Under the pieces are notes generated by a model. That model ran no database searches, was not told the DNA's origin, and saw nothing but the letters and a program-made list of their open reading frames with translations. From NCBI GenBank assembly GCA_022710715.1, contig JAKLGJ010000004.1, forward strand, positions 128,166 through 192,165: a stretch of DNA of 64,000 nt, read 5' to 3'. Numbering within the stretch: the first letter of the stretch is position 1; every line of letters begins with the position of its first letter. Of the stretch, positions 14,563-42,238 are shown piece by piece. The position numbers and the translations under genes are program-made. The stretch is from Candidatus Omnitrophota bacterium (lineage in GTDB: Bacteria; Omnitrophota; Gorgyraeia; Gygaellales; Profunditerraquicolaceae).

Positions 14563-15126
14563 ATGATGTACAAGGACAGTTCGCTCAAACAGTATTGCGA
14601 TGATGTCGCGGCGAAGCTCGCCGCCCCCGGCGGCGGATCGGTCAGCGCTTTGACCGCCTGTATGGGCGTTTCGCTGTTGAGCATGGTCATCAATTTCACG
14701 CTGGGCAAGCCCCGTTTTGCGCGTTACGAAGCGTTGTTGCGCCGGCGTCTGGAAGACACGGAGAAACTGCGCCGTGAATTGCTGCGCCTGGTCGATCTCG
14801 ATGTCGCCGCATTCAAGAGCGGCTCTGCCCGCGATGCTTTTGCCGTGCCGTTGATGATCTGCCGTCTTTCGTTAGCCGGAGGGCGGCTCTGTAAGCTGTT
14901 GTTGACCAGTACCAATCCGGCGCTGATCAGCGATATCGGCGTGGCCGCGGTTTTGCTGGAAGCGGCTTTTGCCGGCGCGGCGATGAATGTGGATATCAAT
15001 CTCAAGACGCTCGATGATGCTTCGCTTTCCCGCAAGTCAAGGCGGGAGCTGGCGGCGGGTCGTAAACAGATACAACGTATCCGTGCGAACGTGGAGGAGT
15101 ATGTCGGCAAAGTTATTGGAAGGTAA
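14563..15126 (+). CDS. Cyclodeaminase/cyclohydrolase family protein (FchA / FtcD C-domain-like methenyl- or formimino-THF enzyme)
   Basis: YCDDVAAKLAAPGGGSVSALTACMGVSLLSMV is typical of the formiminotransferase-cyclodeaminase C-terminal domain family. It lies directly upstream of folD and overlaps it. Confidence 0.75.
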   Translation: MMYKDSSLKQYCDDVAAKLAAPGGGSVSALTACMGVSLLSMVINFTLGKPRFARYEALLRRRLEDTEKLRRELLRLVDLDVAAFKSGSARDAFAVPLMICRLSLAGGRLCKLLLTSTNPALISDIGVAAVLLEAAFAGAAMNVDINLKTLDDASLSRKSRRELAAGRKQIQRIRANVEEYVGKVIGR

Positions 15127-15940
15127 GCTCATTGCTGATCAGTTGCGCGAGATCTTGAAACAGAAGATCCAGGCGGCGCATGCGCGCCTGCGGCTGGCAA
15201 GTATTCAGGTGGGAACGAATCCCGCCACCGAAGTGTATATCAAATCCCAGAAGAGGATCGCCGATCTGCTGGGGATCGACTATCAGCTGCATGCGCTTCC
15301 CAAAGAGACCAGCCAGGAGGCGTTCTGCGCGTTCGCCGCCGGGCTCAACCGCGATGCCGGAGTGCAGGGCATCATCGTGCAGCTGCCGCTGCCTTTGCAT
15401 TTGAGCTATACCGAGGTCATCCAGTGTATTGTTCCGGAAAAAGATATTGAGGGCATGCATCCGATCAACCTGGGCAGAGTGGTGTTCGGCAAAGCCAGGA
15501 TCCTGCCCTGCACTGCCGCCGCTGCCATGGAACTGTTGCAGTCGATCGGGATGGGTTTATCCGGCAAAGAGGTCGTTATTATCGGCCACAGCGAGATCGT
15601 AGGCAAACCGCTGGCTTTGATGCTCATGGATAAGCTGGCCACGGTCACTGTTTGCCACATCGGCACCTACAAAGCGGGTAAACTCGAGGAGCATGTGCGC
15701 AGAGCGGATATCCTGATCGTAGCTGTGGGCAAGCCCGGATTGATCAAAGGCGAGTGGATCAAGGAGAAAGCCGTGATCATCGATATCGGAATCAACAAGA
15801 TCGGCGATAAGATCGTCGGCGATGTGGAGTTCGAGGAAGCCCAGAAACATGCCGCCTGGATCACGCCGGTGCCCGGGGGCGTGGGGCCGCTGACGGTGAT
15901 GATGCTCATGCGTAACCTGGTAGAAGCCGCCCACCTGTAG
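15101..15940 (+). CDS. folD: Bifunctional methylene-THF dehydrogenase / methenyl-THF cyclohydrolase
   Basis: MSAKLLEGKLIADQLR N-terminus, VQLPLP and the Rossmann motif VVIIGHSEIVGKPLA. Start ATG 15101 is inside ORF 14987. Confidence 0.9.
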   Translation: MSAKLLEGKLIADQLREILKQKIQAAHARLRLASIQVGTNPATEVYIKSQKRIADLLGIDYQLHALPKETSQEAFCAFAAGLNRDAGVQGIIVQLPLPLHLSYTEVIQCIVPEKDIEGMHPINLGRVVFGKARILPCTAAAAMELLQSIGMGLSGKEVVIIGHSEIVGKPLALMLMDKLATVTVCHIGTYKAGKLEEHVRRADILIVAVGKPGLIKGEWIKEKAVIIDIGINKIGDKIVGDVEFEEAQKHAAWITPVPGGVGPLTVMMLMRNLVEAAHL

Positions 15941-15949
15941 CGAAAAAAA

Positions 15950-16279
15950 ATGAAAACGATCATCCTGCTTACCATCTCGAATATTTTCATGACTTTTGCC
16001 TGGTACGGTCACCTGAAATACCGGAATTCGCCGTTATGGATAGCGATCGCGGTCAGCTGGTCGATCGCGCTGGTGGAATACTGTTTTCAGGTCCCGGCCA
16101 ACCGCATCGGGTCGTATCATTTTTCAACCGCGCAGTTGAAAACCATCCAGGAAGTGATCACCCTGGCGGTGTTCGTGGTCTTTTCCCTGTTCTATCTGAA
16201 AGAAGATTTCAAGTGGAACTACCTGGCCGGCTTTCTGTGCATCATCGCCGCCGTTTTCTTTGTTTTCAAAAAGTGGTAG
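15950..16279 (+). CDS. DMT-superfamily small membrane protein (DUF486-like)
   Basis: 109 aa with three to four predicted TM helices. The N-terminus MKTIILLTISNIFMTFAWYGHLKY resembles the DUF486 family. Confidence 0.65.
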   Translation: MKTIILLTISNIFMTFAWYGHLKYRNSPLWIAIAVSWSIALVEYCFQVPANRIGSYHFSTAQLKTIQEVITLAVFVVFSLFYLKEDFKWNYLAGFLCIIAAVFFVFKKW

Positions 16280-17463
16280 CCGGATCGGTTCCCCTGCAAC
16301 AATCATGCCTGCATTTCCCCCTGTGCGGGGGCTGCGAATATCAGGATGTTCCCTATCCCAAGCAGCTCGAAGATAAACAGATCTATCTTGAGCATCTCTT
16401 CGCGCGTTTCAAAGCCAGGGAATTCCGGCCGATCATCCCCTCCCCGCAACTGCGGGCGTACCGCAATAAAATGGAGTATGCGGTGGGAGGCAGCGCCGAA
16501 GCGCCCTGTATCGGTTTGCGCCGGAAGAAGCAGCACCGGGCGTTGATCGATGTGCAAGAGTGTCCGGTGTTTTCCCCGGATACCCGGGCGTTGCTGGACG
16601 TATTCCGGGACTGGATGCGTACGCTCACTATCCTGCCCTACGATGTGTATAAACATACCGGCCAGCTGCGGTATGTGACGGTGCGTCACGCGAAATATAC
16701 CGATGAGATGCTGGTTTCCGTGGTAATGGCGGCAGAGCCTGCGCAGATCGAGCGCGAGCGTCAGACGGAGAAATACCGTTGGCTGGTAGAGCGCTTAAGC
16801 GCTTTGCCGATGGTCCGGTCGATTTACGCCTGCGCGAACAGCTCCTGGTCGGATACCGCTCTGACCGATGCGATGATCCTGCTCTGGGGAACCGAGAGCG
16901 TCACCGAACGCATCAATGATCGCGACTATCAGATCGGTCCGCGGACCTTTTTTCAGACCAACTCTTTCTGTTGCGCCCGCCTTTATGAGGAGATCCGCCG
17001 CCAGGTAGGAGTTCATGCCGGCAGGACGCTGGATCTGTATTGCGGCTGCGCGGGGATCACTCTGCAGGTAGCGGATGCAGTAAGCGAAGTAGTGGGGGTG
17101 GACAATCTTCCTGCGAATATCGATCAGGCCCGGGTCAATGCCCGGCTTAACGGTGTGACCAACGCTACGTTTATCTGCGCCGACGCGCAGGAACTGATCC
17201 GGCAGGTAGCAGCCGGACCGCAGCAGGACCGGTTCGAGACGATCATTGTCGATCCTCCCCGGGTCGGTCTGACGCGTAAAAGCAGGCAGTTGCTGCTCGC
17301 GAGCCAGGCGCGGGCGATTGTTTATGTTTCCTGCAATCCCCTTAATCTGGCCGAGGATCTCAAGATCCTCACTACCGAGTATGCCGTTGAGAGTATCACC
17401 GGGGTGGATATGTTTCCCTATACCCGGCATATGGAAGTGGTGGCGGGTTTGCGCCGGCAATAA
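16273..17463 (+). CDS. Class I SAM-dependent RNA (uracil-5)-methyltransferase, RumA/TrmA family, no TRAM domain
   Basis: Fe-S-type cysteine cluster CLHFPLCGGC, the SAM motif DLYCGCAGITL and the catalytic motifs VDPPRVG and CNP. The upstream part of table ORF 16036 overlaps the DMT gene, so the likely start is the in-frame GTG 16273. Confidence 0.75.
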   Translation: MVAGSVPLQQSCLHFPLCGGCEYQDVPYPKQLEDKQIYLEHLFARFKAREFRPIIPSPQLRAYRNKMEYAVGGSAEAPCIGLRRKKQHRALIDVQECPVFSPDTRALLDVFRDWMRTLTILPYDVYKHTGQLRYVTVRHAKYTDEMLVSVVMAAEPAQIERERQTEKYRWLVERLSALPMVRSIYACANSSWSDTALTDAMILLWGTESVTERINDRDYQIGPRTFFQTNSFCCARLYEEIRRQVGVHAGRTLDLYCGCAGITLQVADAVSEVVGVDNLPANIDQARVNARLNGVTNATFICADAQELIRQVAAGPQQDRFETIIVDPPRVGLTRKSRQLLLASQARAIVYVSCNPLNLAEDLKILTTEYAVESITGVDMFPYTRHMEVVAGLRRQ

Positions 17464-17467
17464 CGCT

Positions 17468-17496
17468 TTGACAAACCCGATTGCTGCGGTTACAAT
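17468..17496 (+). promoter_or_regulatory. Near-consensus sigma70 promoter TTGACA-17-TACAAT for the metF-acsB operon
   Basis: ttgaca at 17468-17473, a 17-nt spacer and tacaat at 17491-17496. The metF ATG at 17522 is about 20 nt downstream of the predicted transcription start. Confidence 0.5.
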
Positions 17497-17521
17497 AAAT
17501 GATGAGCACAAAGAGAACGCA

Positions 17522-18397
17522 ATGACCTTCAGAGAAAAACTTACCAGCGGGCGGTTCCTGGTCACCACCGAGATCGGCCCGCCGAAAGGCATCGATATTC
17601 AGCACGTGCTGGACGCGGCCGAGTCTACGCGCGGGCGGGTCGACGCGTTGAATGTGACCGACCTTCAGAGTTCGATCATGCGTCTGGGGTCGTTGGTGGT
17701 TTCGGGTATCCTGCAGGCGCGCGGTTTCGAGCCGATCTGTCAGGTTACCTGCAGGGATCGGAATCGTCTGGCTTTGCAATCGGATATCCTGTCCGTCGCG
17801 GCTCTGGGAATAGAGAATCTCCTTATCCTGACCGGAGATTATCCGACTATCGGCGATCATCCGGAGGCAAAACCGGTGTTCGACCTTGATGCGGTGCAAT
17901 TGCTGGAAGTGGTCGGCAGGCTGCAGCGGGGCGAGGATATGAACGGCAATAAGCTCATCGGGCCGGCGCCGCGCTATTTCGCGGGGGCGGTGGTCAATCC
18001 CGGGGCTGATCCGCTGGAGCCGGAATTGATCAAGATGGAGAAGAAAGTCCGCGCCGGAGCGCAGTTTTTTCAAACCCAGGCGGTTTTTGATGTCGAGGCG
18101 TTCGAGCGTTTTATGCACAAGGTCCGGTATCTCAATGTGCCGGTGCTGGCAGGGATCATTCTGTTGAAATCCGAGAAAATGGCGCGGTACCTTAATCAGC
18201 ACGTTCCGGGGATCTGCGTGCCGCAGGAGTTGATCCAGAAGTTGTCCGCCGCCGGCGATAAAGCGGCGGTGTCGTGCGAGATCGCCGCGGCGTTGATTCG
18301 CCGCATCAAGCCGTTGTGCCGGGGAGTGCATATAATCCCCATCGGCTGGGATAAACAGGTGCCGCTGGTGCTTGACGCGGCAGGAATAAACCCATGA
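17522..18397 (+). CDS. metF: Methylenetetrahydrofolate reductase
   Basis: MTFREKLTSGRFLVTTEIGPPKG...LNVTD...TCRDRN match MetF. The consensus promoter TTGACA-17-TACAAT lies 30-50 nt upstream. Start is ATG 17522 within ORF 17318. Confidence 0.85.
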   Translation: MTFREKLTSGRFLVTTEIGPPKGIDIQHVLDAAESTRGRVDALNVTDLQSSIMRLGSLVVSGILQARGFEPICQVTCRDRNRLALQSDILSVAALGIENLLILTGDYPTIGDHPEAKPVFDLDAVQLLEVVGRLQRGEDMNGNKLIGPAPRYFAGAVVNPGADPLEPELIKMEKKVRAGAQFFQTQAVFDVEAFERFMHKVRYLNVPVLAGIILLKSEKMARYLNQHVPGICVPQELIQKLSAAGDKAAVSCEIAAALIRRIKPLCRGVHIIPIGWDKQVPLVLDAAGINP

Positions 18398-19296
18398 AAA
18401 AAATAGTCATCATCGGAGCTTCCATCGCAGGCCACACGGCCGCCGTCGGGCTGCGGGAAAAGATCAAAGACTGTCAGATCAGCCTGATTACCGAAGGTTC
18501 GTATCCGTTATACGATAAGTCGAAGCTGCTGCAGTATCTCTGCGGTCTGCTTAAAGAGAAGGATCTGCTGATGGTCGGTCCCGATTTTTACCAGCAGCAG
18601 TCGATCGAGTTCCTTAAAGACAGGAAAGTCGTGCAGGTCAGCCCGTCAAGAAAAGTCGTCCACTGCCGGCACAAAGACAAGCGGGAGAGTTATGAGTATG
18701 ATTTCCTGGCGGTTTGTTCGGGCCGGCGTTCCGTGCTGCCGGAAATCACCGGGATCAATAAAGAGGGTATTTACACGCTTGATTCGCTCAACGATTACAA
18801 GCAGCTGCGCCAGCATCTGATCAGCGATCCGGTCTGTTTCATCGGATCCGTACGCCGGGCGTTGCCGGCTGCGACCATGCTTGCCGGTAGGCAGCGGGAA
18901 GTAAAGGTGATCTCTTCGGAGGGCATGCAGCCGGCTGAACCCATCGACGGGATGGAGATCGTTTCCAGCGAAGTGATCGAGTTGATCGGGGAATCCGGGG
19001 TGCAGGCGATACGTCTGAAAGAGGGCAAGATCATCGGTACGTCCCTGCCGGTATTCGTTCCTGCCCTGACCGCCGCCAACAGCGATTTTCTCAAGGATAG
19101 CGGTATTACTATGGACGGTGAACTGTTGTGCGTCGATGAATCGATGTGTACCAGTATCAAAACAATTTACGCCAGCGGCGCGGTGTGTTTGCGTCAAGGC
19201 GCTGCAGCGGCCGAGAAAAGCTGGGATGAGGCGATTCAGGAAAGCCGCATGCTTGTCGATGGTCTGGCGAAGGCTATAGGAGGCGCGGATGTCTGA
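18394..19296 (+). CDS. Short FAD/NAD(P)-binding pyridine nucleotide-disulfide oxidoreductase-family protein
   Basis: Dinucleotide-binding motif MKKIVIIGASIAGHTAA at the N-terminus. At 300 aa it lacks the usual C-terminal dimerisation domain. The ATGA and ATGTCTGA overlaps couple it translationally to metF and acsB. Confidence 0.65.
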   Translation: MKKIVIIGASIAGHTAAVGLREKIKDCQISLITEGSYPLYDKSKLLQYLCGLLKEKDLLMVGPDFYQQQSIEFLKDRKVVQVSPSRKVVHCRHKDKRESYEYDFLAVCSGRRSVLPEITGINKEGIYTLDSLNDYKQLRQHLISDPVCFIGSVRRALPAATMLAGRQREVKVISSEGMQPAEPIDGMEIVSSEVIELIGESGVQAIRLKEGKIIGTSLPVFVPALTAANSDFLKDSGITMDGELLCVDESMCTSIKTIYASGAVCLRQGAAAAEKSWDEAIQESRMLVDGLAKAIGGADV

Positions 19297-21472
19297 AGTA
19301 TTGGTTCAATTAGGCACACAGGGTAGCGCGGCGGTGATACAACTGGCGCGTCAGTCGCTGGATAAGGTTATCAAGGCCAAAGGTCCTGCCGCCCCCATGG
19401 GATTTCCCGAGACCAATTATTATCTGCCGCTGTGCCTGGCGTTGCTTAACCGCGAAGTCCGGACTGCGGCTGATTGCGCATACATTCTTGAGCAGGCGCA
19501 GAAGCTTGACGCGGGAAAACCCGCGGCGGGAGGCGTGCATATCCCCGCACTGGGAGGCGTTCTGAACAAGGGTATTGCCACCTTGCTCTGCGAAGAGGTT
19601 CTGGCGGCGGTAGCAGTGTCCGAAGGACAGCATCCGCAACCCGGTTATGCCGGTTTTCTGCCGGATAAACTGCTGCGTTCGCTGGGGCTGCAATTGGTGG
19701 ATGGCAGGATCGCCGGTATTGCGGTCATCCTGGGGCCGGCCGCGGATGAGGATAAGGCGGTAGAGATGATCCGGCAGTTCCAGACCAACAGTATTGTCTG
19801 CCTGCTGGTGGGGAGCGCCAAAGGCACGAGCCTGAAGCAGCAACTGGAGAACAAGAAGGTCGAGCTGGGCCTGGAGAATTATATCGTGCCGCTGGGAGAA
19901 GATTACCTGTCGGCGATCTACGCGGTGAACTGGGCGGTGCGCGCGGCTTTGATCTACGGCGGATATAAACCCGGCCAGTGGGAAGGGATCGCTGAATATG
20001 TGCGCAACCGCGTACCCGCGGTGGTCGTTCTGTTAAGCCATGTGGACGAAGTTCTGGTAGCTACCGGATTGGGAGTACTGGCGCTGGGACTGCCCATCAT
20101 TACCGATCTGGATGTGCCTCAACTGGGAAAGATCGATACCACGCTCTATGAAGCGCTGGTGACCGAAAAAGATTATAAAAAGATCGTCTCCCGCTGCATC
20201 CTCACCCGCGGGATCAAGGTTAAAGTCGCGCAGGTTCCTGTTCCGGTAGCCTATGCCGCCGCTTTTGAAGGTGAACGGGTGCGCAAGGAGCAGCTATACG
20301 TCGAGTTCGGCGGCAAGTCCGGCGTTTCCTTCGAATATCTCAAAACCGCCGGCATCGAAGATATCGAGGACGGCGCGGTCAAAATAGTCGGACCGGATAT
20401 CGACGCGCTGCCCAAAGACGTTACCGCCATGCCGCTGGCCATCGTGGTCGAAGTGGCGGGGCGTAAGATGCAGAAAGATTTTGAACCGATCCTGGAACGT
20501 CAGATTCATCGTTTTGTGAATTACGCTCAAGGGATTATGCATATCGGCCAGAGGGATATGAACTGGATCCGGATTTCCCGGGAGGCTTTTACCAAGGGAT
20601 TTCGCCTGAAACATTTCGGCGTTATCCTGCATGCCATGCTGCATCAGGAATTCAGCGCGATCGTGGACAAGGTTCAGGTTACTTTGTTCACGGGCAAGCA
20701 GGATGTGCAGCGGCTCCTGGCAGAGGCCAGGCGCGTTTACGACGAACGGGATGAGCGTCTTAGCGGCATGACCGATGAAAGCGTGGATACGTTCTATTCC
20801 TGCACGCTCTGTCAGAGTTTCGCGCCCAATCATGTTTGCATCATCACGCCTGAACGTCTGGGGCTCTGCGGCGCGTATTCCTGGCTCGACGGCAAGGCTG
20901 CATTCGAGATCAATCCCACCGGCCCGAACCAGCCGGTAGAGAAAGGAACCGCTCTGGACCTGCGCCTGGGGCAATGGGACAGGATCAATCAGTTCTTCTA
21001 CGAACGGTCGAACAAAACCATCGAGAAGGTCAGCATGTATTCGCTGATGGACGCCCCGCAGTCTTCGTGCGGTTGTTTCGAATGCATCCTGGCGGTTTTA
21101 CCTGAAGTCAACGGCGTGATGGTGGTGCACCGTGATTTTCCGGGCATGACTCCCTGCGGCATGACTTTTACCACGCTGGCCGGTTCGGTCGGCGGCGGAG
21201 TGCAGACGCCGGGATTTCTGGGTATCGGCAAGCTCTATGTGGTCAGCGGCAAATTCATTTCCGCGGAAGACGGGCTCAAGCGACTGGTTTGGATGCCTAA
21301 AGAACTCAAGGAGTTGCTTAAAGATAAGCTGGTCAAGCGTTGTCAGGCCATTGGCGAGCCGGCGCTTCTGGATAAGATCGCTGATGAAACCATAGCTACT
21401 ACCGTTGAAGAGGTAGCAGCCTATCTGGAGAAGGTCAAACATCCGGTACTGGATCTCGCGCCACTGGTGTAA
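19289..21472 (+). CDS. acsB: Acetyl-CoA synthase catalytic subunit (CODH/ACS beta subunit, A-cluster)
   Basis: Aligns along its whole length with Moorella AcsB. It has RQIHRFVNYAQGIMHIGQRDMNWIRIS, the [4Fe-4S] ligands SCTLCQSFAPNHVCIITPERLGLCG and the proximal-Ni Cys-Gly-Cys motif SSCGCFECI. 727 aa. Confidence 0.9.
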   Translation: MSEVLVQLGTQGSAAVIQLARQSLDKVIKAKGPAAPMGFPETNYYLPLCLALLNREVRTAADCAYILEQAQKLDAGKPAAGGVHIPALGGVLNKGIATLLCEEVLAAVAVSEGQHPQPGYAGFLPDKLLRSLGLQLVDGRIAGIAVILGPAADEDKAVEMIRQFQTNSIVCLLVGSAKGTSLKQQLENKKVELGLENYIVPLGEDYLSAIYAVNWAVRAALIYGGYKPGQWEGIAEYVRNRVPAVVVLLSHVDEVLVATGLGVLALGLPIITDLDVPQLGKIDTTLYEALVTEKDYKKIVSRCILTRGIKVKVAQVPVPVAYAAAFEGERVRKEQLYVEFGGKSGVSFEYLKTAGIEDIEDGAVKIVGPDIDALPKDVTAMPLAIVVEVAGRKMQKDFEPILERQIHRFVNYAQGIMHIGQRDMNWIRISREAFTKGFRLKHFGVILHAMLHQEFSAIVDKVQVTLFTGKQDVQRLLAEARRVYDERDERLSGMTDESVDTFYSCTLCQSFAPNHVCIITPERLGLCGAYSWLDGKAAFEINPTGPNQPVEKGTALDLRLGQWDRINQFFYERSNKTIEKVSMYSLMDAPQSSCGCFECILAVLPEVNGVMVVHRDFPGMTPCGMTFTTLAGSVGGGVQTPGFLGIGKLYVVSGKFISAEDGLKRLVWMPKELKELLKDKLVKRCQAIGEPALLDKIADETIATTVEEVAAYLEKVKHPVLDLAPLV

Positions 21473-21487
21473 AGGAGGCCACGGATT

Positions 21488-21862
21488 ATGAACGAACGCA
21501 GGAAGGATTTACGGGTGAATAACTCGGTGATGGTGCGTTACTGGATAGGCGACGGTTTTCTCAAGACCGGTTCGCGCAGCGCGGACATGTCCACAGGGGG
21601 GGTACGTTTGCCCCTGCATCAGAAACTTGAACCCGGGACCAAGGTCGAATTGTCCATCGAAATAGAGAATAACGCTAAGCCGCTGATCGCCTCCGGGCAG
21701 GTGGCCTGGGTGGAGAGAAAAAAACATCCCCAGTATCCCTTTGAAATCGGGATTAAATTCACCCGGATAGACTCGGGAACTCTGGAACGGCTCAAGAAAT
21801 ACCTGGAGAGTCTGCCTCCCGATGACAGTGCCCCGAAGATGCGCTGGCTGGATAAGGAATAG
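21488..21862 (+). CDS. PilZ-domain protein (putative c-di-GMP receptor)
   Basis: PilZ motifs RRKDLR (RxxxR) and DMSTGGV (DxSxxG). 124 aa. RBS aaggagg lies 8 nt upstream of the start, which is 16 nt after the acsB stop. Confidence 0.7.
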   Translation: MNERRKDLRVNNSVMVRYWIGDGFLKTGSRSADMSTGGVRLPLHQKLEPGTKVELSIEIENNAKPLIASGQVAWVERKKHPQYPFEIGIKFTRIDSGTLERLKKYLESLPPDDSAPKMRWLDKE

Positions 21863-21878
21863 GGGATGAATATTTTCC

Positions 21879-21907
21879 TTGACAGTCGCTGCAACTTTAG
21901 TTATTAT
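21879..21907 (+). promoter_or_regulatory. Consensus sigma70-type promoter TTGACA-17 nt-TATTAT in an AT-rich island upstream of polA
   Basis: ttgaca at 21879-21884, a 17-nt spacer and tattat at 21902-21907. It is followed by the small hairpin cccgc-N14-gcgggg-atttt. Confidence 0.5.
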
Positions 21908-35135: not shown

Positions 35136-36485
35136 ATGGCGCTATCAGGTTTAGACATCTATAAGCTTTTACCCAAGACGAACTGTAAGGCCTGCGGTTT
35201 CCCCACCTGCCTGGCTTTTGCCATGCAACTGGCCAAGAAGGCGGTCAGCATCGATGCCTGTCCTTCGGTAAGCAAGGAAACTAAAGCGGCGCTGGAAGCG
35301 GCAGCCCAGCCGCCGATACGGCTGGTCAGCGTCGGCCGCCCGGAAAAGCCGCTGGACATGGGCAATGAAACAGTGCTCTTCCGGCACGAAGAGAAATTCC
35401 GTAATCCCTGCGGTCTGGGGTTCGTTATCGACGACAGTTTGTCCGACGATGAGATAACCGTCCGGGTGCAGAAGATCAACCAGCTGAAATTCGAGCGCGT
35501 GGGGCAGGAATTGCAGGTCAACGCCGTGGCGGTCAAGCAGACCGGTAACGCCGAACGTTTCGTGGAAGCGGTGAGACTGGTCGGCGCCCGGACGCAACTG
35601 GCGATCGTGTTGATGAGTCAGGATGCGCAGGCGCTTGCGGGCGCTCTGCCGCTGCTTAAAGATACCAAACCCGTGGTTTTTTCGGTGACCGGCGCGTCCG
35701 TCGATTCGCTGCTGCCGGCGATCGCGCCGTTCAAGCCGGCGGTAGTGGTATCCGCTTCCGACCTGCAGGGAGTTGCCGCGTTGACGCAGCAGCTGACCCG
35801 GCAGGGGATACAGGACATTCTTCTGGACACCGGCGCCAAGCCGTGCGCGCAGAAACTCTGGGATCTTACGCAGATCCGCAGGCTGGCTTTGAGGAAATCC
35901 GAGCGAAGTCTGGGTTTCCCGTCTATCGTCGTGGTGGATGAGCAGGATCCGGCTGCGGAAGCCCTGCAGGCAGCCACGTACATACTCAAATACGCCGGTC
36001 TGGTGCTGGTGAGAAGCATAGAGAACTGGCAATCCTACGCATTATTAACGCTGCGCCAGAACATTTACAGCGATCCGCAAAAACCGTTGCAGATCGAGCC
36101 GAAATTGTACGAGATCGGAACAGTGACCAGAGAATCCCCGGTCCTGGTGACCACTAATTTTTCCTTGAGCTACTATACGGTACTGGGAGAGGTGGAAGCC
36201 AGCAAGATCCCCGTGTATATTTTGAGCGTGGATACCGAAGGCATGTCGGTTCTGACCGCGTGGGCAGCCGAAAAATTCACCCCGGAGCGCATCACCCAGA
36301 CATTGCAGAAAATGGCTGTGCGCGACAAAGCGCAGAAGAGCGCTCTGGTTATCCCCGGGTACGTCGCGGTGATGAGCGGCGATCTCGAGGATCAGAGCAA
36401 ATGGGATATCATCGTGGGGCCGAAGGAAGCTTCGGGCATCCCGGCATTCCTGAAAACGTTGGGACATGGCAAAGCTAACCGTTAA
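35136..36485 (+). CDS. acsC: Corrinoid iron-sulfur protein large subunit (CODH/ACS gamma subunit)
   Basis: N-terminal Fe-S site MALSGLDIYKLLPKTNCKACGFPTCLAFAMQLA, and close co-linearity with Moorella AcsC (ETVLFRHEEKF, DLTQIRRLALRK, TNFSLSYYTVLGEVEASKIPVYILSVDTEGMSVLTAWA). Confidence 0.9.
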   Translation: MALSGLDIYKLLPKTNCKACGFPTCLAFAMQLAKKAVSIDACPSVSKETKAALEAAAQPPIRLVSVGRPEKPLDMGNETVLFRHEEKFRNPCGLGFVIDDSLSDDEITVRVQKINQLKFERVGQELQVNAVAVKQTGNAERFVEAVRLVGARTQLAIVLMSQDAQALAGALPLLKDTKPVVFSVTGASVDSLLPAIAPFKPAVVVSASDLQGVAALTQQLTRQGIQDILLDTGAKPCAQKLWDLTQIRRLALRKSERSLGFPSIVVVDEQDPAAEALQAATYILKYAGLVLVRSIENWQSYALLTLRQNIYSDPQKPLQIEPKLYEIGTVTRESPVLVTTNFSLSYYTVLGEVEASKIPVYILSVDTEGMSVLTAWAAEKFTPERITQTLQKMAVRDKAQKSALVIPGYVAVMSGDLEDQSKWDIIVGPKEASGIPAFLKTLGHGKANR

Positions 36486-38391
36486 GTTCATACCTGATAA
36501 TAAGACCGTCGAGGTCGAAAAGGACCGGACCATCGCTTCGGCCGCCCTTTCCGCCGGCGTGCCGTTGAACGCCGCCTGCGGGGGGGACGGCGTTTGCGGC
36601 CGATGCAGGGTGCTGGTACGCAAAGGCCAGGTCGGCGCGCTGGCTACCGGCAGGATGAGCCTGGCAGATATGCGTAAAGGTTTGTATCTGGCTTGCCAGA
36701 CTACGGTGCAGAGCGATCTGGAAGTCGAGGTCCCGGCGGAGTCCCGCCTGGATATGGACCGGCTGTCCGCCGAAGAGATCGACCGGCGCTTGAAGGGTTT
36801 TTACGGCCCGTCCGAAGATGTGCAGTCGTTGGAAGCGGCCGCGCCGGTCAAACCGGCTTTCACCGGCTCTGCGTTGACCGAGAAACTGTACCTGGAATTG
36901 CCGCCTCCGACGTTGCAGGATTGTATCAGCGATCTGGAGCGTCTCTATCGACAGATCCAGGCGCAGAAAGACTATATCCCGGAGCACGCGGGGTTGGCGG
37001 CTATCCGTCTCCTGGGAGAACTCCTGCGCTCTGCGCAGTGGAAAGTCACCGCCACCGTGGGCAAGCGCTATGGCATCATCGAATTGCTGGACGTTGAGCC
37101 GGGGGATACTGCGTCCCGGAATTTCGGTCTGGTATTCGATATCGGCACGACCACGGTTTCCGGCCAGCTGGTGGATCTGCAATCCGCCCGGGTTCTGGGC
37201 ACCAGAGCTACCTATAACAAGCAGGCCAGCTTCGGCAGCGATGTGATCACCCGCATTATGTACGCGCAGAAGGAGGAAGGGTTAGAGAAGCTGCATCAGG
37301 CGGTCGTTGAGAGCATGAATGCCATCACCCATGATCTGGCTGCCGAAAACAGTATCGATCTCAACGATGTCACCTGCGTGGTCTGCGCCGGCAACACCAC
37401 CATGATACATTTGCTCCTGCGCATCGATCCGACCTATATCCGCCGGGAACCGTATGTTGCCACCGCTAATTTTATTCCTGTGGCGCGCGCGCATGAAGCC
37501 GGAATCCTGGTTAATCCCCGGGCGCTGCTGTTTTGCCTGCCGGGCGTGGCCAGTTACGTGGGAGGAGATGTTACCGCCGGAGTGCTGGCGTGCGGGCTGG
37601 ATACAGCGGACGATGTCAACATCCTGATCGATATCGGGACGAACGGCGAAGTGGTCGTGGGTAATAAAGAATTTCTGGTCTGCGCGGCAGCTTCCGCCGG
37701 CCCGGCGTTCGAAGGGTCCGGGGTAAGCTGCGGAATGCGCTCGAGTATCGGGGCGATACAGAAAGTCACCATCGATCCGAAAGCATTCGCGGTGCGGTAT
37801 GAAACTATCGGGTCGGCTCCTGCCCGCGGTATCTGCGGCTCCGGGTACATCGACTGTATTGCGGCGATGCTTACCTGCGGGTTGCTGGATAAAGACGGTA
37901 AGATAAAAGCCATCGATAATCCCCGGATCCGCGCGACGGGCGCCGGCAGGGAATTCGTTCTGGCGGCGGCAGGAGAAAACGGTTGTCAGGCGGATATCGT
38001 GATCACCGAAGCGGATATCGATAATATCAAACGGGCCAAAGCGGCGATCTATGCGGCCGTCGTAAGTCTGCTGAAACATATTTCGCTCGATTTCCCCGCG
38101 ATAAAGCGGATTTTTATCGCCGGAGGGTTCGGAACGTCGCTGGATATCGCCAGCGCTATCACCATCGGATTGCTTCCCGCTTTGAAGAAAGAAACATTCG
38201 TTTTTGTGGGCAACAGCTCCCTTACCGGGGCCAGGAATACGATCCTGTCCGAAGAGGCCTGCGCGACGGCGGATGAGATTGCCCACAAGATGACGTACTG
38301 CGAACTTTCCGTTGAGCCGGGATATATGGAAGAATATATGGCGGCGTTGTTCTTTCCCCATACGGATATAGCGCGTTTCGGGAAGAAATAG
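36466..38391 (+). CDS. Corrinoid activation/regeneration protein (RACo-type; 2Fe-2S ferredoxin domain plus ASKHA ATPase domain)
   Basis: N-terminal plant-type ferredoxin motif CGGDGVCGRCRV and a C-terminal ASKHA-like domain. At 641 aa it sits exactly where orf7/RACo lies in the Moorella acs operon. Confidence 0.8.
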   Translation: MAKLTVKFIPDNKTVEVEKDRTIASAALSAGVPLNAACGGDGVCGRCRVLVRKGQVGALATGRMSLADMRKGLYLACQTTVQSDLEVEVPAESRLDMDRLSAEEIDRRLKGFYGPSEDVQSLEAAAPVKPAFTGSALTEKLYLELPPPTLQDCISDLERLYRQIQAQKDYIPEHAGLAAIRLLGELLRSAQWKVTATVGKRYGIIELLDVEPGDTASRNFGLVFDIGTTTVSGQLVDLQSARVLGTRATYNKQASFGSDVITRIMYAQKEEGLEKLHQAVVESMNAITHDLAAENSIDLNDVTCVVCAGNTTMIHLLLRIDPTYIRREPYVATANFIPVARAHEAGILVNPRALLFCLPGVASYVGGDVTAGVLACGLDTADDVNILIDIGTNGEVVVGNKEFLVCAAASAGPAFEGSGVSCGMRSSIGAIQKVTIDPKAFAVRYETIGSAPARGICGSGYIDCIAAMLTCGLLDKDGKIKAIDNPRIRATGAGREFVLAAAGENGCQADIVITEADIDNIKRAKAAIYAAVVSLLKHISLDFPAIKRIFIAGGFGTSLDIASAITIGLLPALKKETFVFVGNSSLTGARNTILSEEACATADEIAHKMTYCELSVEPGYMEEYMAALFFPHTDIARFGKK

Positions 38392-38394
38392 ACT

Positions 38395-39144
38395 ATGGCA
38401 TACGTTATCGCGCTGGCAGGCAAAGGGGGTACCGGCAAGACGACTATCGCCGGGTTGATCGTCAGATTGCTGGGGGAGAGCAAACGCGGCTCCGTGCTGG
38501 CAGTGGATGCCGACCCCAACAGTAATCTCGGCGAAGTGCTGGGTGTGACGCCGCAGGAAACGATCGGCGAGATCCTTGATTTCATCGGCGCCCATCCCGA
38601 TAAAATTCCGGCGGGGATGACCAAGGACCGTTTCATCGAGTATAAAGTTCAAACTGCGGTCCAGGAGGCCAAAGGTTTCGACCTGTTGACCATGGGCAAG
38701 CCCGAAGGGCCGGGTTGTTACTGTTATGTGAACAATGTCCTGCGCAGCGTGGTCGAGCGGTTGATGCAGGAATACGATTATGTGGTCATTGACAATGAAG
38801 CGGGGCTGGAGCATCTTTCGCGCCGGACTACCCGTCGAGCCGACTGCCTGCTGGTCGTGGCGCAGCCCAGCGCGGTGTCGTTGAAAGCCGCGCAGAGGAT
38901 CAAACAGCTGGTCGGTCAGTTGCAGATAGAGACGCGCCAGTCGGTACTGTTGATCAATGCCAGCCGGGGCAGGGTTGATCCCGCGCAGGTGCGTGAAACC
39001 GGTTTGCTCCTGGCCGGGAAGCTCGCTTTCGACCAGACGCTGGCGCGCTTGAGCGCGCGCGGGTCGTCATTGACGGGTTTAAGCCGGCGATCAAAGATGA
39101 TGGCGACTCTGGAAAAAATTCTGAAAAAAACAATCGACCATTGA
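38395..39144 (+). CDS. cooC: CODH/ACS nickel-insertion accessory ATPase (CooC/AcsF, MinD/ParA family)
   Basis: Deviant Walker A box ALAGKGGTGKTTIAGL and VDADPNSNL, at 249 aa. Its place between RACo and acsD matches acsF. Confidence 0.85.
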   Translation: MAYVIALAGKGGTGKTTIAGLIVRLLGESKRGSVLAVDADPNSNLGEVLGVTPQETIGEILDFIGAHPDKIPAGMTKDRFIEYKVQTAVQEAKGFDLLTMGKPEGPGCYCYVNNVLRSVVERLMQEYDYVVIDNEAGLEHLSRRTTRRADCLLVVAQPSAVSLKAAQRIKQLVGQLQIETRQSVLLINASRGRVDPAQVRETGLLLAGKLAFDQTLARLSARGSSLTGLSRRSKMMATLEKILKKTIDH

Positions 39145-39171
39145 TCCCCCCGTTAACGAGAAGAGGTTTCT

Positions 39172-40134
39172 ATGGCAATCGAAGCGTTACTGGAGAAGTG
39201 GCAGGGAAAGATAAACAGCGTGACTATCGGGGCTACCGCCGCGGAAGGCGGAACGCGGACGCACACGGTTACCGTGGGCGGTCAGACGGCGCTGCCGTTC
39301 TTGTTCAAAGAAGGCGCTTTGCCGAACAAGCCGGTCATAGCTTTCGAGATCTGGGACTGCGCCCCGGACGACTGGCCGCCGGAACTGGCAACGGTCTACC
39401 GGGCGGATTGGTCGCATCCTCTGGAGTGGGCCGCGCGTTGCGTCAAAGAATACAAAGCCGGATTATTGAGCGTCCGGTTGCAGGGATTGCATCCTGACTG
39501 CGGGAACAAAAAGCCGGAAGAGGCGGCGGAGTTCGTCCGCGCTTTATTAAAAAAGACCGGTGTGCCGTTGATCATCACCGGTTGCGGCGACGATGACAAA
39601 GACAACATCGCATTGCCGTTGTGTTCGGAAGCAGCCAAAGGCCAGCGCTGCCTGTTCGGTTCGGCGCTGCAGGATAATTATAAAACGTTGACCGCTGCGG
39701 TGCTGGCTGACGGTCATTCGCTGATCGCGGAATCCCCGATCGATATCAATATCGCCAAACAGCTGAACATTTTGATTTCGGATATGGGGTTGAGCCCAGC
39801 GCGGCTGGTGATCAATCCGACTATCGGACCGCTGGGCTACGGCCTGGAGTATGCCTATTCGATCATGGAGCGCTGCCGTCTTGCGGCGCTGGCCGGCGAC
39901 ACGATGGTGGCCATGCCCTTTATCTGTTTCGTCGGACAGGAATCATGGAAAATAAAAGAGGCGCGGGCGAGCATCCGGGAATTCCCGCAATGGGGACCGG
40001 AGAAAGAGCGCGGGATCATCTGGGAAGCCATGACTGCCGCGGCTTTGATACAGGCCGGCGCGGATATCCTGGTCATGCGTCATCCCGTTGCCGCGCAAAA
40101 AGTCAGGGAGTATATCGACAGCCTATGTTCATAA
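39172..40134 (+). CDS. acsD: Corrinoid iron-sulfur protein small subunit (CODH/ACS delta subunit)
   Basis: Aligns with Moorella AcsD throughout (GGTRTHTVTVGG, ALPF, NKPVIAFEIWD, CKQLNILI, GYGLEYAYSIMER, GAHILLMRHP). Confidence 0.9.
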   Translation: MAIEALLEKWQGKINSVTIGATAAEGGTRTHTVTVGGQTALPFLFKEGALPNKPVIAFEIWDCAPDDWPPELATVYRADWSHPLEWAARCVKEYKAGLLSVRLQGLHPDCGNKKPEEAAEFVRALLKKTGVPLIITGCGDDDKDNIALPLCSEAAKGQRCLFGSALQDNYKTLTAAVLADGHSLIAESPIDINIAKQLNILISDMGLSPARLVINPTIGPLGYGLEYAYSIMERCRLAALAGDTMVAMPFICFVGQESWKIKEARASIREFPQWGPEKERGIIWEAMTAAALIQAGADILVMRHPVAAQKVREYIDSLCS

Positions 40135-40916
40135 TCGGAGAGCTTATTAACGGCATGTACCGGCAGATCGCCGCCGCGCTTAAAGCCAAAGACGCTGCAG
40201 CGATACAGAATTGCGCCCGCCAGCAGCTTGCTGCCGGCGCGCAGGCGCTGGATATCAACTGCGGGCCGGGTTCAGCCGATCCGGTCAGGGACATGGTGTG
40301 GCTGGTGGAGACGGTGCAGTCGGTTGCCGCAAGCATGATCGTGCTGGACGCCAGCAAGCCGGCGGTGATCGAGGCGGGATTGCAGGCCGCCCGGGTACCG
40401 ACGATGATCAATTCTACGACCGCGGACAGAGAAAAACTGGAAGTGCTGGTGGGGCTGGCCAGGCGCTATAACGCCAAGTTGATCGGGCTGGCCATGGACG
40501 CCCGCGGCATCCCGCAGAACAAGGATCAGCGCCTGGAATTGGCGGCGTCCATAGTATCGTTCTGCGCGGAAAAAGAATTTCCCCTGGAGGATCTCTATCT
40601 GGACCCGGTGCTGCTGCCGGTCAAAGTAGGCCAGGCCCACCTGGAGGCGATCCTGGAATCGATACGCGAGTTCAAGATCATTTCCCGGCCGAGCCCCAAA
40701 ACCGTTGTGGGGTTGAGCAATGTATCCCAGGGGATTCCAGCAGTCAGGAGCCTGATCAATCGCACGTTTTTAAGCATGGCGGCCGCCGCCGGACTGGACG
40801 CGGCGATACTCGATCCGCTGGACAAGGATCTGATGGATACCTTGATCACGGCCGAAGTGATCCTGAACAAAGAGATTTATTGCGATTCATTCTTGACCGG
40901 GCGGCGAAAGAAGTAG
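40125..40916 (+). CDS. acsE: Methyl-THF:corrinoid iron-sulfur protein methyltransferase
   Basis: MFIIGELINGMY...ALDINCGP...MINSTTADREK...GLSNVSQG...NRTFL align with Moorella AcsE (pterin-binding TIM barrel). Start ATG 40125 overlaps the acsD stop. Confidence 0.9.
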   Translation: MFIIGELINGMYRQIAAALKAKDAAAIQNCARQQLAAGAQALDINCGPGSADPVRDMVWLVETVQSVAASMIVLDASKPAVIEAGLQAARVPTMINSTTADREKLEVLVGLARRYNAKLIGLAMDARGIPQNKDQRLELAASIVSFCAEKEFPLEDLYLDPVLLPVKVGQAHLEAILESIREFKIISRPSPKTVVGLSNVSQGIPAVRSLINRTFLSMAAAAGLDAAILDPLDKDLMDTLITAEVILNKEIYCDSFLTGRRKK

Positions 40917-40942: not shown

Positions 40943-42238
40943 ATGCGGAATGCGCGCTGGATGGTATCCGTTTTTTTTGTGCTGGCGACGTCAGTCGTCG
41001 CGACTGCCCAGGTAGATTTCAAAGAGCTGGTCAGGATCGAAGCCGACTACATCCTCTCCTGCCAGTATGTGAGCGAAACCGATCCTGCTTCGGGAGCCAT
41101 TAATAATGTCTATGGCCTGCCGACGTGGGTGGTGCCGCGTGAAAATGCCCTGGCCATCCTGGCCCTGGTGCAGGCTGCCGAGATCCTCGATGACGAGCAG
41201 TACATCCAGCGGGCGCGCCTGGCCGCGGATTATCTCGTACGTATCCAGGATACAGACGGCGCCTGGTATAATCAATATCGTTATACCGCCGCCGGCGATC
41301 CGGATAATCCGGATCGCAGCGAGACGCTGGCAAAGTCGCCGACCCAGGCCGCGGAAGTGATGATCGCTCTGTACCGGCTCGGGTACGAATCCGGTTATTA
41401 TCCGGCGATGAAAAAGGCCGCCGGTTATTTGATGGCCTGTCAGAACAGCGGCGGCAACGGCTTCCTGCTGGGCGGCGGCAAGGACGCGCAGGGGGTGTTT
41501 CGCAGCTGGCGCTGGGCGTCGGACAACGCATTCGCTTTCCAGGCGCTTAAGGCCGCCGAGACCTGGGCGGTGATGCATAACGATCTGCGCTTCGCTCTGT
41601 TCTGCTCCAGGTCTGCCCGCAAGATCGCCGTCGGGATCAACAGGAATTTATACATCGCAGACAAAAAAGATCCCGATTACGGGGTCTGGCACCGGGTTGT
41701 GGATGAGATGAATATCCCGGTCGAACCGTTGCGCCACGACTGGATCAATTACGCTCCCCAGATGCTGGATCTGCCCTGCAAGGGAGTGAATAACGCCAGA
41801 GTCGGCCACTGGATACACCGCACTCTGCAGAATGAACATTTTGCCTGCATCTGGGACGACACGCAGTTCACCCACCGGGAATCGCCCGGATATACGTTCC
41901 AGGCGGTGCTGTGCTGGCGCGACCTCGGCCAGGAAGAATATTTTTTCAAAGCGTTGATCTGGGCTTTGAACAGCGGTCTGTGGAAAAATACCATTGATTG
42001 TAATCCGGCGGTCGGCGGCTGGGTAGACTGGCAGGATACGCAAACCGGCGAGCAGTCTCCCTGCTGGCAGCGTTTCATCGACACCAGCTTTTATTCGATC
42101 GCCGCTTTTAACGGCGGATATGCGTTCAGGGTCATTCCGAGTTTCTTGCGTATCAGTTATTCCAATCCCAAGACAACTTCCGGCGCCCCCTGTTATCTGC
42201 AATTGAGTTTTCCTGAAACGGAGTCCGAGACGGAATAA
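40943..42238 (+). CDS. Secreted protein with prenyltransferase/terpene-cyclase-like alpha/alpha-toroid repeats (function unknown)
   Basis: Signal peptide MRNARWMVSVFFVLATSVVATAQ. Repeated motifs of the form QxxDG(A/G)W and ENALAILAL suggest an (alpha/alpha)6 toroid. The family assignment is tentative. Confidence 0.45.
   Translation: MRNARWMVSVFFVLATSVVATAQVDFKELVRIEADYILSCQYVSETDPASGAINNVYGLPTWVVPRENALAILALVQAAEILDDEQYIQRARLAADYLVRIQDTDGAWYNQYRYTAAGDPDNPDRSETLAKSPTQAAEVMIALYRLGYESGYYPAMKKAAGYLMACQNSGGNGFLLGGGKDAQGVFRSWRWASDNAFAFQALKAAETWAVMHNDLRFALFCSRSARKIAVGINRNLYIADKKDPDYGVWHRVVDEMNIPVEPLRHDWINYAPQMLDLPCKGVNNARVGHWIHRTLQNEHFACIWDDTQFTHRESPGYTFQAVLCWRDLGQEEYFFKALIWALNSGLWKNTIDCNPAVGGWVDWQDTQTGEQSPCWQRFIDTSFYSIAAFNGGYAFRVIPSFLRISYSNPKTTSGAPCYLQLSFPETESETE

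Follow-up and report, generated by a model that had tools for sequence, protein, structure and literature searches.

A truncated FNOR-like flavoprotein encoded between metF and acsB in Omnitrophota: a probable accessory subunit of an acetyl-CoA synthase without carbon monoxide dehydrogenase

Which neighbour does a small two-domain flavoprotein serve when its gene lies between one methyl-branch gene of the Wood-Ljungdahl pathway and the gene of acetyl-CoA synthase (ACS)? The question is raised by a stretch of 64,000 nucleotides from a Candidatus Omnitrophota bacterium (contig JAKLGJ010000004.1, hereafter the window, meaning this stretch in its whole length), in which an open reading frame (ORF) of 300 codons, ORF300, separates metF, coding for methylene-tetrahydrofolate reductase (MTHFR), from acsB, coding for the catalytic subunit of ACS. 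The original prediction considered ORF300 as a candidate electron-transfer subunit, either for MetF or for ACS. The association with ACS is the one favoured here, considering the coupling of ORF300 to acsB, its fusions with AcsB and its co-variation with the N-terminal (A1) domain of AcsB. ORF300 is probably an accessory subunit of an ACS devoid of carbon monoxide dehydrogenase (CODH), derived from the FAD-dependent NAD(P) oxidoreductase (FNOR) of CODH gene clusters, and not the electron donor of MetF. CODH-less AcsB proteins are already known, and what would be new is an ACS accessory subunit or domain derived from FNOR.

A word-index search returned 95 clusters of ORF300 homologues at 90% identity, with sizes of about 265-320 aa, and a profile search run exhaustively over 1.84 billion representatives returned about 50 clusters of the family at 50% identity, below which the scores grade into ordinary proteins of 400-440 aa. 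The homologues bearing a name come nearly all from Candidatus Omnitrophota, together with a few metagenome-assembled genomes labelled Planctomycetales, Deltaproteobacteria or Patescibacteria; the family is an Omnitrophota-restricted short clade. The occurrence of the metF-ORF300-acsB triad in other genomes, set beforehand as a test, was verified: metF lies directly upstream of the ORF300 homologue in 21/21 non-identical loci, 19 of which have a spacing of -4 to +16 nt, and acsB comes next in about 13 loci, where the distance is mostly between -16 and +12 nt. The homologues of these 21 loci are 32-57% identical to the window protein. The four-gene operon initially described, which included a downstream pilZ gene, is thus conserved in more than 20 Omnitrophota loci for its metF-ORF300(-acsB) part, but its PilZ member belongs to the window strain only. 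The syntenic slot occurs in several variants among Omnitrophota: metF-ORF300-acsB (type 1), an ORF300::AcsB fusion (type 2), an AcsB carrying the middle domain of ORF300 only (type 3), ORF300 without adjacent acsB (type 4) and metF-cooS-cooF-FNOR-acsB (type 5, the CODH/FNOR type). The sole disrupted homologue seen, cut to 162 aa and separated from acsB by 328 nt (L022:5998-6486), is a pseudogene or an assembly error.

The type-5 loci were first reached by following MetF homologues, which led to a locus composed of metF, cooS, cooF, an unknown gene and then a gene for a 424-aa protein with Pyr_redox_2 and Rubredoxin_C domains, 30% identical to ORF300 (E 3e-40). This protein is the FNOR of Ni-CODH/CooF/FNOR clusters. 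Among the 34 loci fetched around it, 31 are of the FNOR type, most of them partial, and 13 span the region from metF to acsB. The gene order folD-metF-cooS-cooF-FNOR-acsB-...-polA is found in 13/13 spanning loci and is syntenic in position with the operon of the window. FNOR and acsB overlap by 8 nt in 7 of the 13 loci measured (TATGTCTAA, that is YV-stop/MSK, with TAT GTC TAA over ATG TCT AAG), and the counterpart of this junction in the window is GATGTCTGA (DV-stop/MSE, with GAT GTC TGA over ATG TCT GAA). Since removing cooS-cooF from such a locus leaves FNOR in the position of ORF300, the adjacency of ORF300 and metF is most simply a by-product of the cooS-cooF loss. In a neighbour-joining (NJ) tree, the short family including the fusions is monophyletic (100/100 bootstrap) and forms a long branch nested among FNOR-like proteins of 400-440 aa. 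Some of the CODH-type loci, not all, also encode between cooF and FNOR a 423-aa protein without Pfam match (L029:8483-9754; L032:8697-9965).

The exhaustive profile search also yielded a 1024-aa protein in which ORF300 and AcsB are joined, and a follow-up search extended this finding to 9 distinct clusters of ORF300::AcsB fusions (1014-1030 aa), retrieved from ENA, JGI and NCBI and 58-82% identical to the 1024-aa query. The two parts are in frame, with a linker of about 10 residues, and one of these fusions is encoded directly after metF in the usual locus. NJ analysis separates the ORF300 family into two deep subclades (197/200 and 191/200), both containing fusions, and monophyly of all fusions is recovered in 0/200 replicates, which implies at least two independent fusion events with AcsB. 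About 110 further Omnitrophota AcsB clusters (840-870 aa) have an N-terminal extension of about 128 residues corresponding to the NAD-like domain of ORF300 (residues ~113-233). This extension is 31-37% identical to ORF300 residues 111-238 by blastp, 43-49% to the family members P0076 and P0066 and 30-35% to full-length FNORs, and it has the deletion after beta2 that characterises the ORF300 family. One AcsB of this type 3 also directly follows metF; wherever a type-2 or type-3 locus was examined, the fused acsB comes immediately after metF, with gaps of 2 and 19 nt. No fusion of ORF300 with MetF was found among the 150 best-scoring representatives, all the fusions found being with AcsB. Apart from these fusions, some Omnitrophota AcsB (P0414; L059:11487-15284) reach about 1265-1318 aa; in P0414, LAGLIDADG_3 and Intein_splicing Pfam domains are present and the AcsB match is split around residue 594, beside the Cys-Gly-Cys Ni site, a layout that suggests an ACS with an intein inserted in its catalytic domain.

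The sequences of the two neighbours differ in how they follow the type of locus. The N-terminal domain of AcsB contacts CODH in Moorella. Over AcsB residues 1-110, identity is 38% between ORF300-type and CODH-type proteins, versus 56% within the ORF300-type and 77% within the CODH-type, and over residues 111-310 the corresponding values are 47%, 74% and 93%. For domains A2 and A3, every comparison, between types as within them, gives 75-78% identity. MetF is 79% identical between types and 75% and 86% within them, and in the type-3 lineages, which no longer have the FAD domain of ORF300, it keeps 64% identity to the window MetF and 74% to that of type 1. The split of A1 by locus type, without any such split of MetF, supports an association of ORF300 with the partner-binding domain of AcsB, and the unchanged MetF of the lineages without the FAD domain argues against a need of MetF for the flavin of ORF300.

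What kind of protein has been retained was addressed through its fold and motifs. AlphaFold2 (AF2) predicts for ORF300 a two-domain FAD and NAD-like fold without C-terminal domain (pLDDT 94.8, pTM 0.90), and the model fits onto the FAD and NAD domains found in persulfide reductases, coenzyme A-disulfide reductases (CoADR), NADH oxidases (Nox) and ferredoxin reductases. Foldseek matches to 9li3, 8a56, 6pfz, 5l1n and 3lb8 have a TM of 0.80-0.85 when normalised on the query and of 0.45-0.67 when normalised on the targets, which are 400-565 aa long and aligned over their first ~300 residues. As these structural relatives are all 100-260 residues longer, a C-terminal domain is missing from ORF300. 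This agrees with the dimerisation domain noted earlier as lacking: neither Pyr_redox_dim nor Rubredoxin_C was found, and the protein stops at residue 300, right after the last helix of the FAD domain. PF07992 is matched without PF00070, whereas the Omnitrophota FNOR matches both (210.6 and 68.7 bits, respectively).

The N-terminal FAD motif, previously announced as GxGxxG, is present but reads GASIAG (residues 8-13) and is therefore of the GxSxxG form. In a 48-sequence alignment of the family, this loop is kept in 47/48 members, and such a strict conservation suggests that a flavin is still held wherever the FAD domain exists. The end of beta2 (residues 31-35), where this superfamily has an acidic residue, is LITEG in the window and LITEE, LISEE or LISDE in many members, so that the acidic residue is present. 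The NAD(P)H loop (GxGxxG/A) is GSVRRA in the window and canonical in just 13/48 members, about 14 residues are deleted after beta2 of the NAD domain, and this domain is mostly gone in two members. The terminal GD motif of FAD binding has lost its Asp in 48/48 sequences, replaced by S, A, T or V, with an invariant Gly (ASGAV in the window). The position of the redox Cys of Nox and CoADR (near residue 42) is occupied by YDK in the window and by YDK or YDR in 39/48 members. No Fe-S, redox-Cys or CxxC motif and no MTHFR_C/NGPCGG was found in ORF300, and only C148 among its 8 scattered Cys is conserved at 90% or more. Without redox Cys and dimerisation domain, an identity as dihydrolipoamide dehydrogenase (DLDH), CoADR or Nox was rejected, and no description of ORF300 as a characterised enzyme was found in the literature. 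The family has 11 invariant columns and its two domains are equally conserved (44.5% and 43.3%). The term of electron-transfer subunit that had been proposed appears doubtful, considering the degenerate NAD(P)H loop, the lack of Fe-S or redox-Cys sites and the survival in many lineages of the flavin-less middle domain alone.

A stepwise reduction of an ancestral CooS-CooF-FNOR-AcsB unit would most likely account for these features. CODH would have been lost, with the disappearance of cooS and cooF from the slot, and in FNOR, no longer engaged in electron transfer from CooF to NAD(P)+, both the C-terminal domain for partner binding and the NAD(P)H site would have been lost. Besides this C-terminal domain, the remnant would be missing one helix in its NAD domain, the Asp of the GD motif and usually the glycine loop for NAD(P)H. 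It would have been kept beside acsB because AcsB had grown dependent on it, then fused to AcsB repeatedly and trimmed to its middle domain in many lineages. ORF300 would thus be a stoichiometric subunit, the middle NAD-like domain of which docks on the remodelled A1 domain of AcsB. Its role may be a structural capping or stabilisation of the domain formerly facing CODH, or a one-electron redox maintenance of the A-cluster; the flavin-less type-3 proteins imply that the latter would not be universal. A stronger version of this proposal, which we regard as rather unlikely, is that of a new form of ACS in which CODH is replaced by a flavoprotein derived from FNOR, present as a separate protein, as a fusion or as a single remaining Rossmann-like domain, docked on the remodelled A1 and functionally required, for example for keeping the A-cluster reduced and active or for gating the entry and exit of CO.

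Several observations weigh against an ACS accessory subunit or lend it no support. An intact metF-ORF300 pair without acsB in the fetched flanks occurs in 7 loci (L004, L008, L014, L015 and L018-L020), which represent at most seven species, since L004 and L015 may be one organism, and for which the view is limited to these flanks. AF2 modelling of the fusion P0228, from a 75-sequence alignment, gave a pTM of 0.44, with low confidence for the linker and A3 and no confident packing between domains. The tree does not resolve the short family and the Omnitrophota FNOR clade as specific sisters, the wider grouping having 59% support, and the orthology of ORF300 and FNOR consequently rests on their position and shared junction. 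Moreover the divergence of A1 could stem from the loss of CODH alone, without any binding of ORF300.

The association with MetF has to be weighed with the same data. If ORF300 were the subunit that feeds electrons into a new MTHFR of two subunits, in place of MetV, RnfC2 or HdrA, the constant presence of metF immediately upstream, the persistence of the pair without an adjacent acsB, the strict conservation of the FAD loop and the absence of MetV (PF12225) both in the window and in the annotated flanks of related loci would be readily explained. However, the homologue is split from metF by cooS-cooF in the CODH-bearing relatives, MetF does not co-vary with the state of ORF300 and is unchanged in the type-3 lineages deprived of the FAD domain, and the fusions found, of at least two origins, involve AcsB, none with MetF having been seen among the 150 best-scoring representatives. 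The degenerate NAD(P)H loop and the lack of an Fe-S site leave no evident route by which ORF300 would receive electrons, and MetF, a full-length single-domain PF02219 protein with catalytic motifs of the E. coli type, may work alone with NAD(P)H. An NAD(P)H-driven electron supply from ORF300 to MetF is therefore unlikely, and so is, in our estimation, the two-subunit MTHFR itself. In Clostridium ljungdahlii, lpdA, a Pyr_redox_2 gene located beside metFV, proved on testing not to supply MTHFR with electrons (PMC8515935), a precedent that warns against inferring a partnership with MetF from adjacency. An adaptor bridging MetF to AcsB in a supercomplex of the methyl branch and ACS would explain the tight coupling to both neighbours, that is the overlaps or near-overlaps on both sides of ORF300 in most type-1 loci and the position of metF directly before the fused acsB in types 2 and 3. 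We consider it improbable: in the Wood-Ljungdahl pathway as established, ACS has AcsE and the corrinoid protein, not MetF, as its biochemical neighbours, so that no gain from channeling is evident, and there is neither covariation on the MetF side nor adjacency of metF and FNOR in type-5 loci.

ORF300 could also be a decaying pseudoenzyme without function, kept by operon inertia and translational coupling to acsB. The loss of the NAD loop, GD Asp and C-terminal domain, the truncated copy of L022, the trimming to one domain in some lineages and a faster evolution than its neighbours (32-57% identity, versus ~65% for MetF and ~70-79% for AcsB) fit with such a relic. Its probability is nonetheless small, given the intact ORF in about 50 clusters at 50% identity, the invariant columns and FAD loop, the equal conservation of both domains and the maintenance of two independent in-frame fusions with AcsB. 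A small flavin oxidoreductase unrelated to its neighbours, acting for example in the detoxification of O2, reactive oxygen species or persulfide, is suggested by the best PDB matches, in sequence as in fold, which are NADH oxidase/persulfide reductase, CoADR and ferredoxin reductases. The missing redox-active Cys and dimerisation domain, the degenerate NAD(P)H loop, the fixed genomic location and the fusion with AcsB make this highly improbable. An accessory subunit of the CODH-less ACS thus appears as the most probable identity of ORF300.

The gene unit from which ORF300 would derive has been described as a FAD-dependent NAD(P) oxidoreductase encoded beside cooS-cooF, biochemically uncharacterised (Whitham 2015, Geelhoed 2016, Inoue 2019; PMC4703632, PMC6344411). 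ORF300 shares with this FNOR its superfamily and sub-type, the GxSxxG FAD loop and an E-IG-x-x-KAVKL-xGK stretch, as well as the slot directly upstream of acsB with an 8-nt overlap found in related genomes; it differs from it by the absence of the Rubredoxin_C-like domain, of ~14 residues of the NAD domain, of the GGGxxG loop and of the GD Asp, and is accompanied neither by cooS nor by cooF. Compared with the CODH/ACS of the Moorella thermoacetica type (AcsA2-AcsB2), the window encodes a three-domain AcsB with all the ligands of the A-cluster, acsC, acsD, acsE, RACo and cooC/acsF, but no AcsA/CooS was found beside acsB or among the other window ORFs scanned, and AcsB has instead a putative partner, or a domain, derived from a flavoprotein. 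The N-terminal domain of ORF300-type AcsB is only 38-47% identical to that of the CODH-linked AcsB of Omnitrophota.

An AcsB without adjacent CODH, described as unusual when the locus was first read, is confirmed for the window but is not novel. A partial Wood-Ljungdahl pathway without formate dehydrogenase, AcsA and CooS/F was reported in Velamenicoccus archaeovorus and 24 Omnitrophota species, others having a fuller version with CooS/F (Seymour et al., PMC10066038), and these partial and fuller pathways correspond to the ORF300-type and CODH-type loci of the present study. In Dehalococcoides mccartyi, a CODH-less AcsB is reported to cleave acetyl-CoA to obtain methyl groups (Zhuang 2014, summarised in PMC7005905). 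The association of AcsB and corrinoid protein without CODH is common to Dehalococcoides, V. archaeovorus and the window, but Dehalococcoides lacks metF and acsE, which are both present here. No mention of an FNOR-derived partner or of an N-terminal extension of AcsB was found on searching PMC10066038 and PMC7005905, and the literature search returned no description of the ORF300 family, of the ORF300::AcsB fusions or of the N-terminal module of AcsB.

The described partners of MTHFR are MetV, MetV with RnfC2, MetV with HdrABC-MvhD and a NuoEFG-like "X type", MetV being defined by MTHFR_C (PF12225), NGPCGG and two [4Fe-4S] sites (PMC8515935). ORF300 resembles these modules as a second gene tightly coupled to metF in the Wood-Ljungdahl cluster of a strict anaerobe, but has no MTHFR_C/NGPCGG, no Fe-S cluster and no intact NAD(P)H site, is located downstream and not upstream of metF, and its state does not co-vary with MetF. 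The dihydrolipoamide dehydrogenase gene lpdA of C. ljungdahlii and Acetobacterium woodii is likewise a Pyr_redox_2 gene beside metF, once proposed as electron donor; LpdA is however a full-length protein with a redox disulfide and a dimerisation domain, both absent from ORF300. Genes of 271-273 aa upstream of metF in type-4 loci were considered as MetV-like candidates and rejected, being secreted TPR proteins with 0-4 Cys. In L004 (6282-7097) and L008 (4310-5131) such a secreted TPR-repeat protein is encoded directly upstream of metF, overlapping its start in L008.

The stronger version of the proposal, if true, would permit a CODH-independent synthesis or cleavage of acetyl-CoA in ultra-small predatory or parasitic bacteria. 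A phylum-wide, repeatedly fused partner of AcsB derived from FNOR, together with a partner-specific N-terminal domain of AcsB, provides concrete proteins for testing how ACS functions without CODH in Dehalococcoides and in the partial pathway of Omnitrophota, including the source or fate of CO and the upkeep of the Ni site. It would also be an example of a redox enzyme stripped down and then taken over by its former neighbour as a subunit or domain, and it corrects the tempting, probably wrong annotation of ORF300 as the reductase partner of MetF.

The features of the window are given in Table 1. The promoter initially reported before metF matches 11/12 positions; 11 promoter-like sites were counted in the 9.5-kb region scanned, versus 5.8 +/- 2.6 expected, and two of them reach 11/12. 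The second of these, just past pilZ and before polA, marks the downstream end of the metF-ORF300-acsB-pilZ unit. The junctions also stand as first described, with an ATGA overlap of metF and ORF300, the ATGTCTGA overlap of ORF300 and acsB, and 15 nt between the acsB TAA and pilZ, the ribosome-binding site of which is AGGAGG. The same gene calls and junctions are found in three independent assemblies, one of them a 1.62-Mb JGI contig. MetF has its catalytic Glu in EIGPP (residue 17) and a flavin-site TGD at 104, and can be aligned to the T. thermophilus and E. coli MetF. AcsB is composed of PF18537, PF03598 and PF19436 (CODH_A_N, CdhC and ACS_CODH_B_C) and has all its A-cluster ligands (C505, C508, C517, C527 and C594-G-C596).

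Table 1. Location of the promoters, genes and domain discussed in the text, in window coordinates.
Feature	Position	Strand	Remarks
fchA	14563-15126	+	PF04961; methyl-branch gene upstream of metF
folD	15101-15940	+	PF00763+PF02882; methyl-branch gene upstream of metF
Sigma-70-like promoter, TTGACA-17-TACAAT	17468-17496 (TTGACA 17468-17473, TACAAT 17491-17496)	+	11/12 match
metF, methylene-tetrahydrofolate reductase, 291 aa	17522-18397	+	PF02219 full length (~1-285/287, E 4e-34)
ORF300, truncated FNOR-like two-domain flavoprotein, 300 aa	18394-19296	+	PF07992 sole Pfam match, 88.7 bits
ORF300 NAD-like middle domain, residues ~113-233	18730-19092	+	Counterpart of the extension at the N-terminus of ~850-aa AcsB from Omnitrophota
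acsB, acetyl-CoA synthase catalytic subunit, 727 aa	19289-21472	+	NF040764, 970.7 bits (cut-off 800)
pilZ, PilZ-domain protein	21488-21862	+	PF07238, E 2e-14
Second sigma-70-like promoter, TTGACA-17-TATTAT	21879-21907	+	11/12 match; between pilZ and polA
acsC	35136-36485	+	ACS machinery, 14 kb downstream of the acsB unit
RACo	36466-38391	+	ACS machinery
cooC/acsF-like ATPase	38395-39144	+	ACS machinery
acsD	39172-40134	+	ACS machinery
acsE	~40125-40916	+	Likely start ATG 40125, 10-nt overlap with acsD stop; longer ORF call begins 39945

The rest of the ACS machinery, the location of which bears on the question of a canonical complex encoded elsewhere, was recovered in the window from acsC to acsE (35136-40916), but no Prismane/CooS (acsA) ORF was found among the scanned ORFs of these 64 kb, which hold all the other acs genes, and no CooF-type ORF was found in the window. 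Right after acsE comes a 431-aa ORF (40943-42238), hydrophobic at its N-terminus, for which no Pfam family passed the threshold and which has no relation to the 423-aa gene found between cooF and FNOR in L029 and L032.

Upstream of metF, a RumA/TrmA-like U5 RNA methyltransferase gene (16273-17463) is inserted between a DMT_6 gene and metF in the window and in some relatives, and in other relatives folD or DMT_6 directly abuts metF. The restriction of this insertion to some relatives suggests that the metF promoter of the window may be lineage-specific. On the other side, the PilZ protein has intact motifs of a c-di-GMP receptor, RKDLR for RxxxR (residues 5-9) and DMSTGG for DxSxxG (33-38), and is a predicted receptor. 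No PilZ match was found at the position following acsB in any other of the related loci fetched first; this position is taken elsewhere by a Rex-like regulator, TPR proteins or a glycosyltransferase (PMT_2). In one type-1 locus (L005:11272-16903), acsB is followed by genes for a Rex-like regulator, NuoE-like and NuoF-like proteins and an [FeFe]-hydrogenase, in the layout of a bifurcating hydrogenase of the HydABC type.

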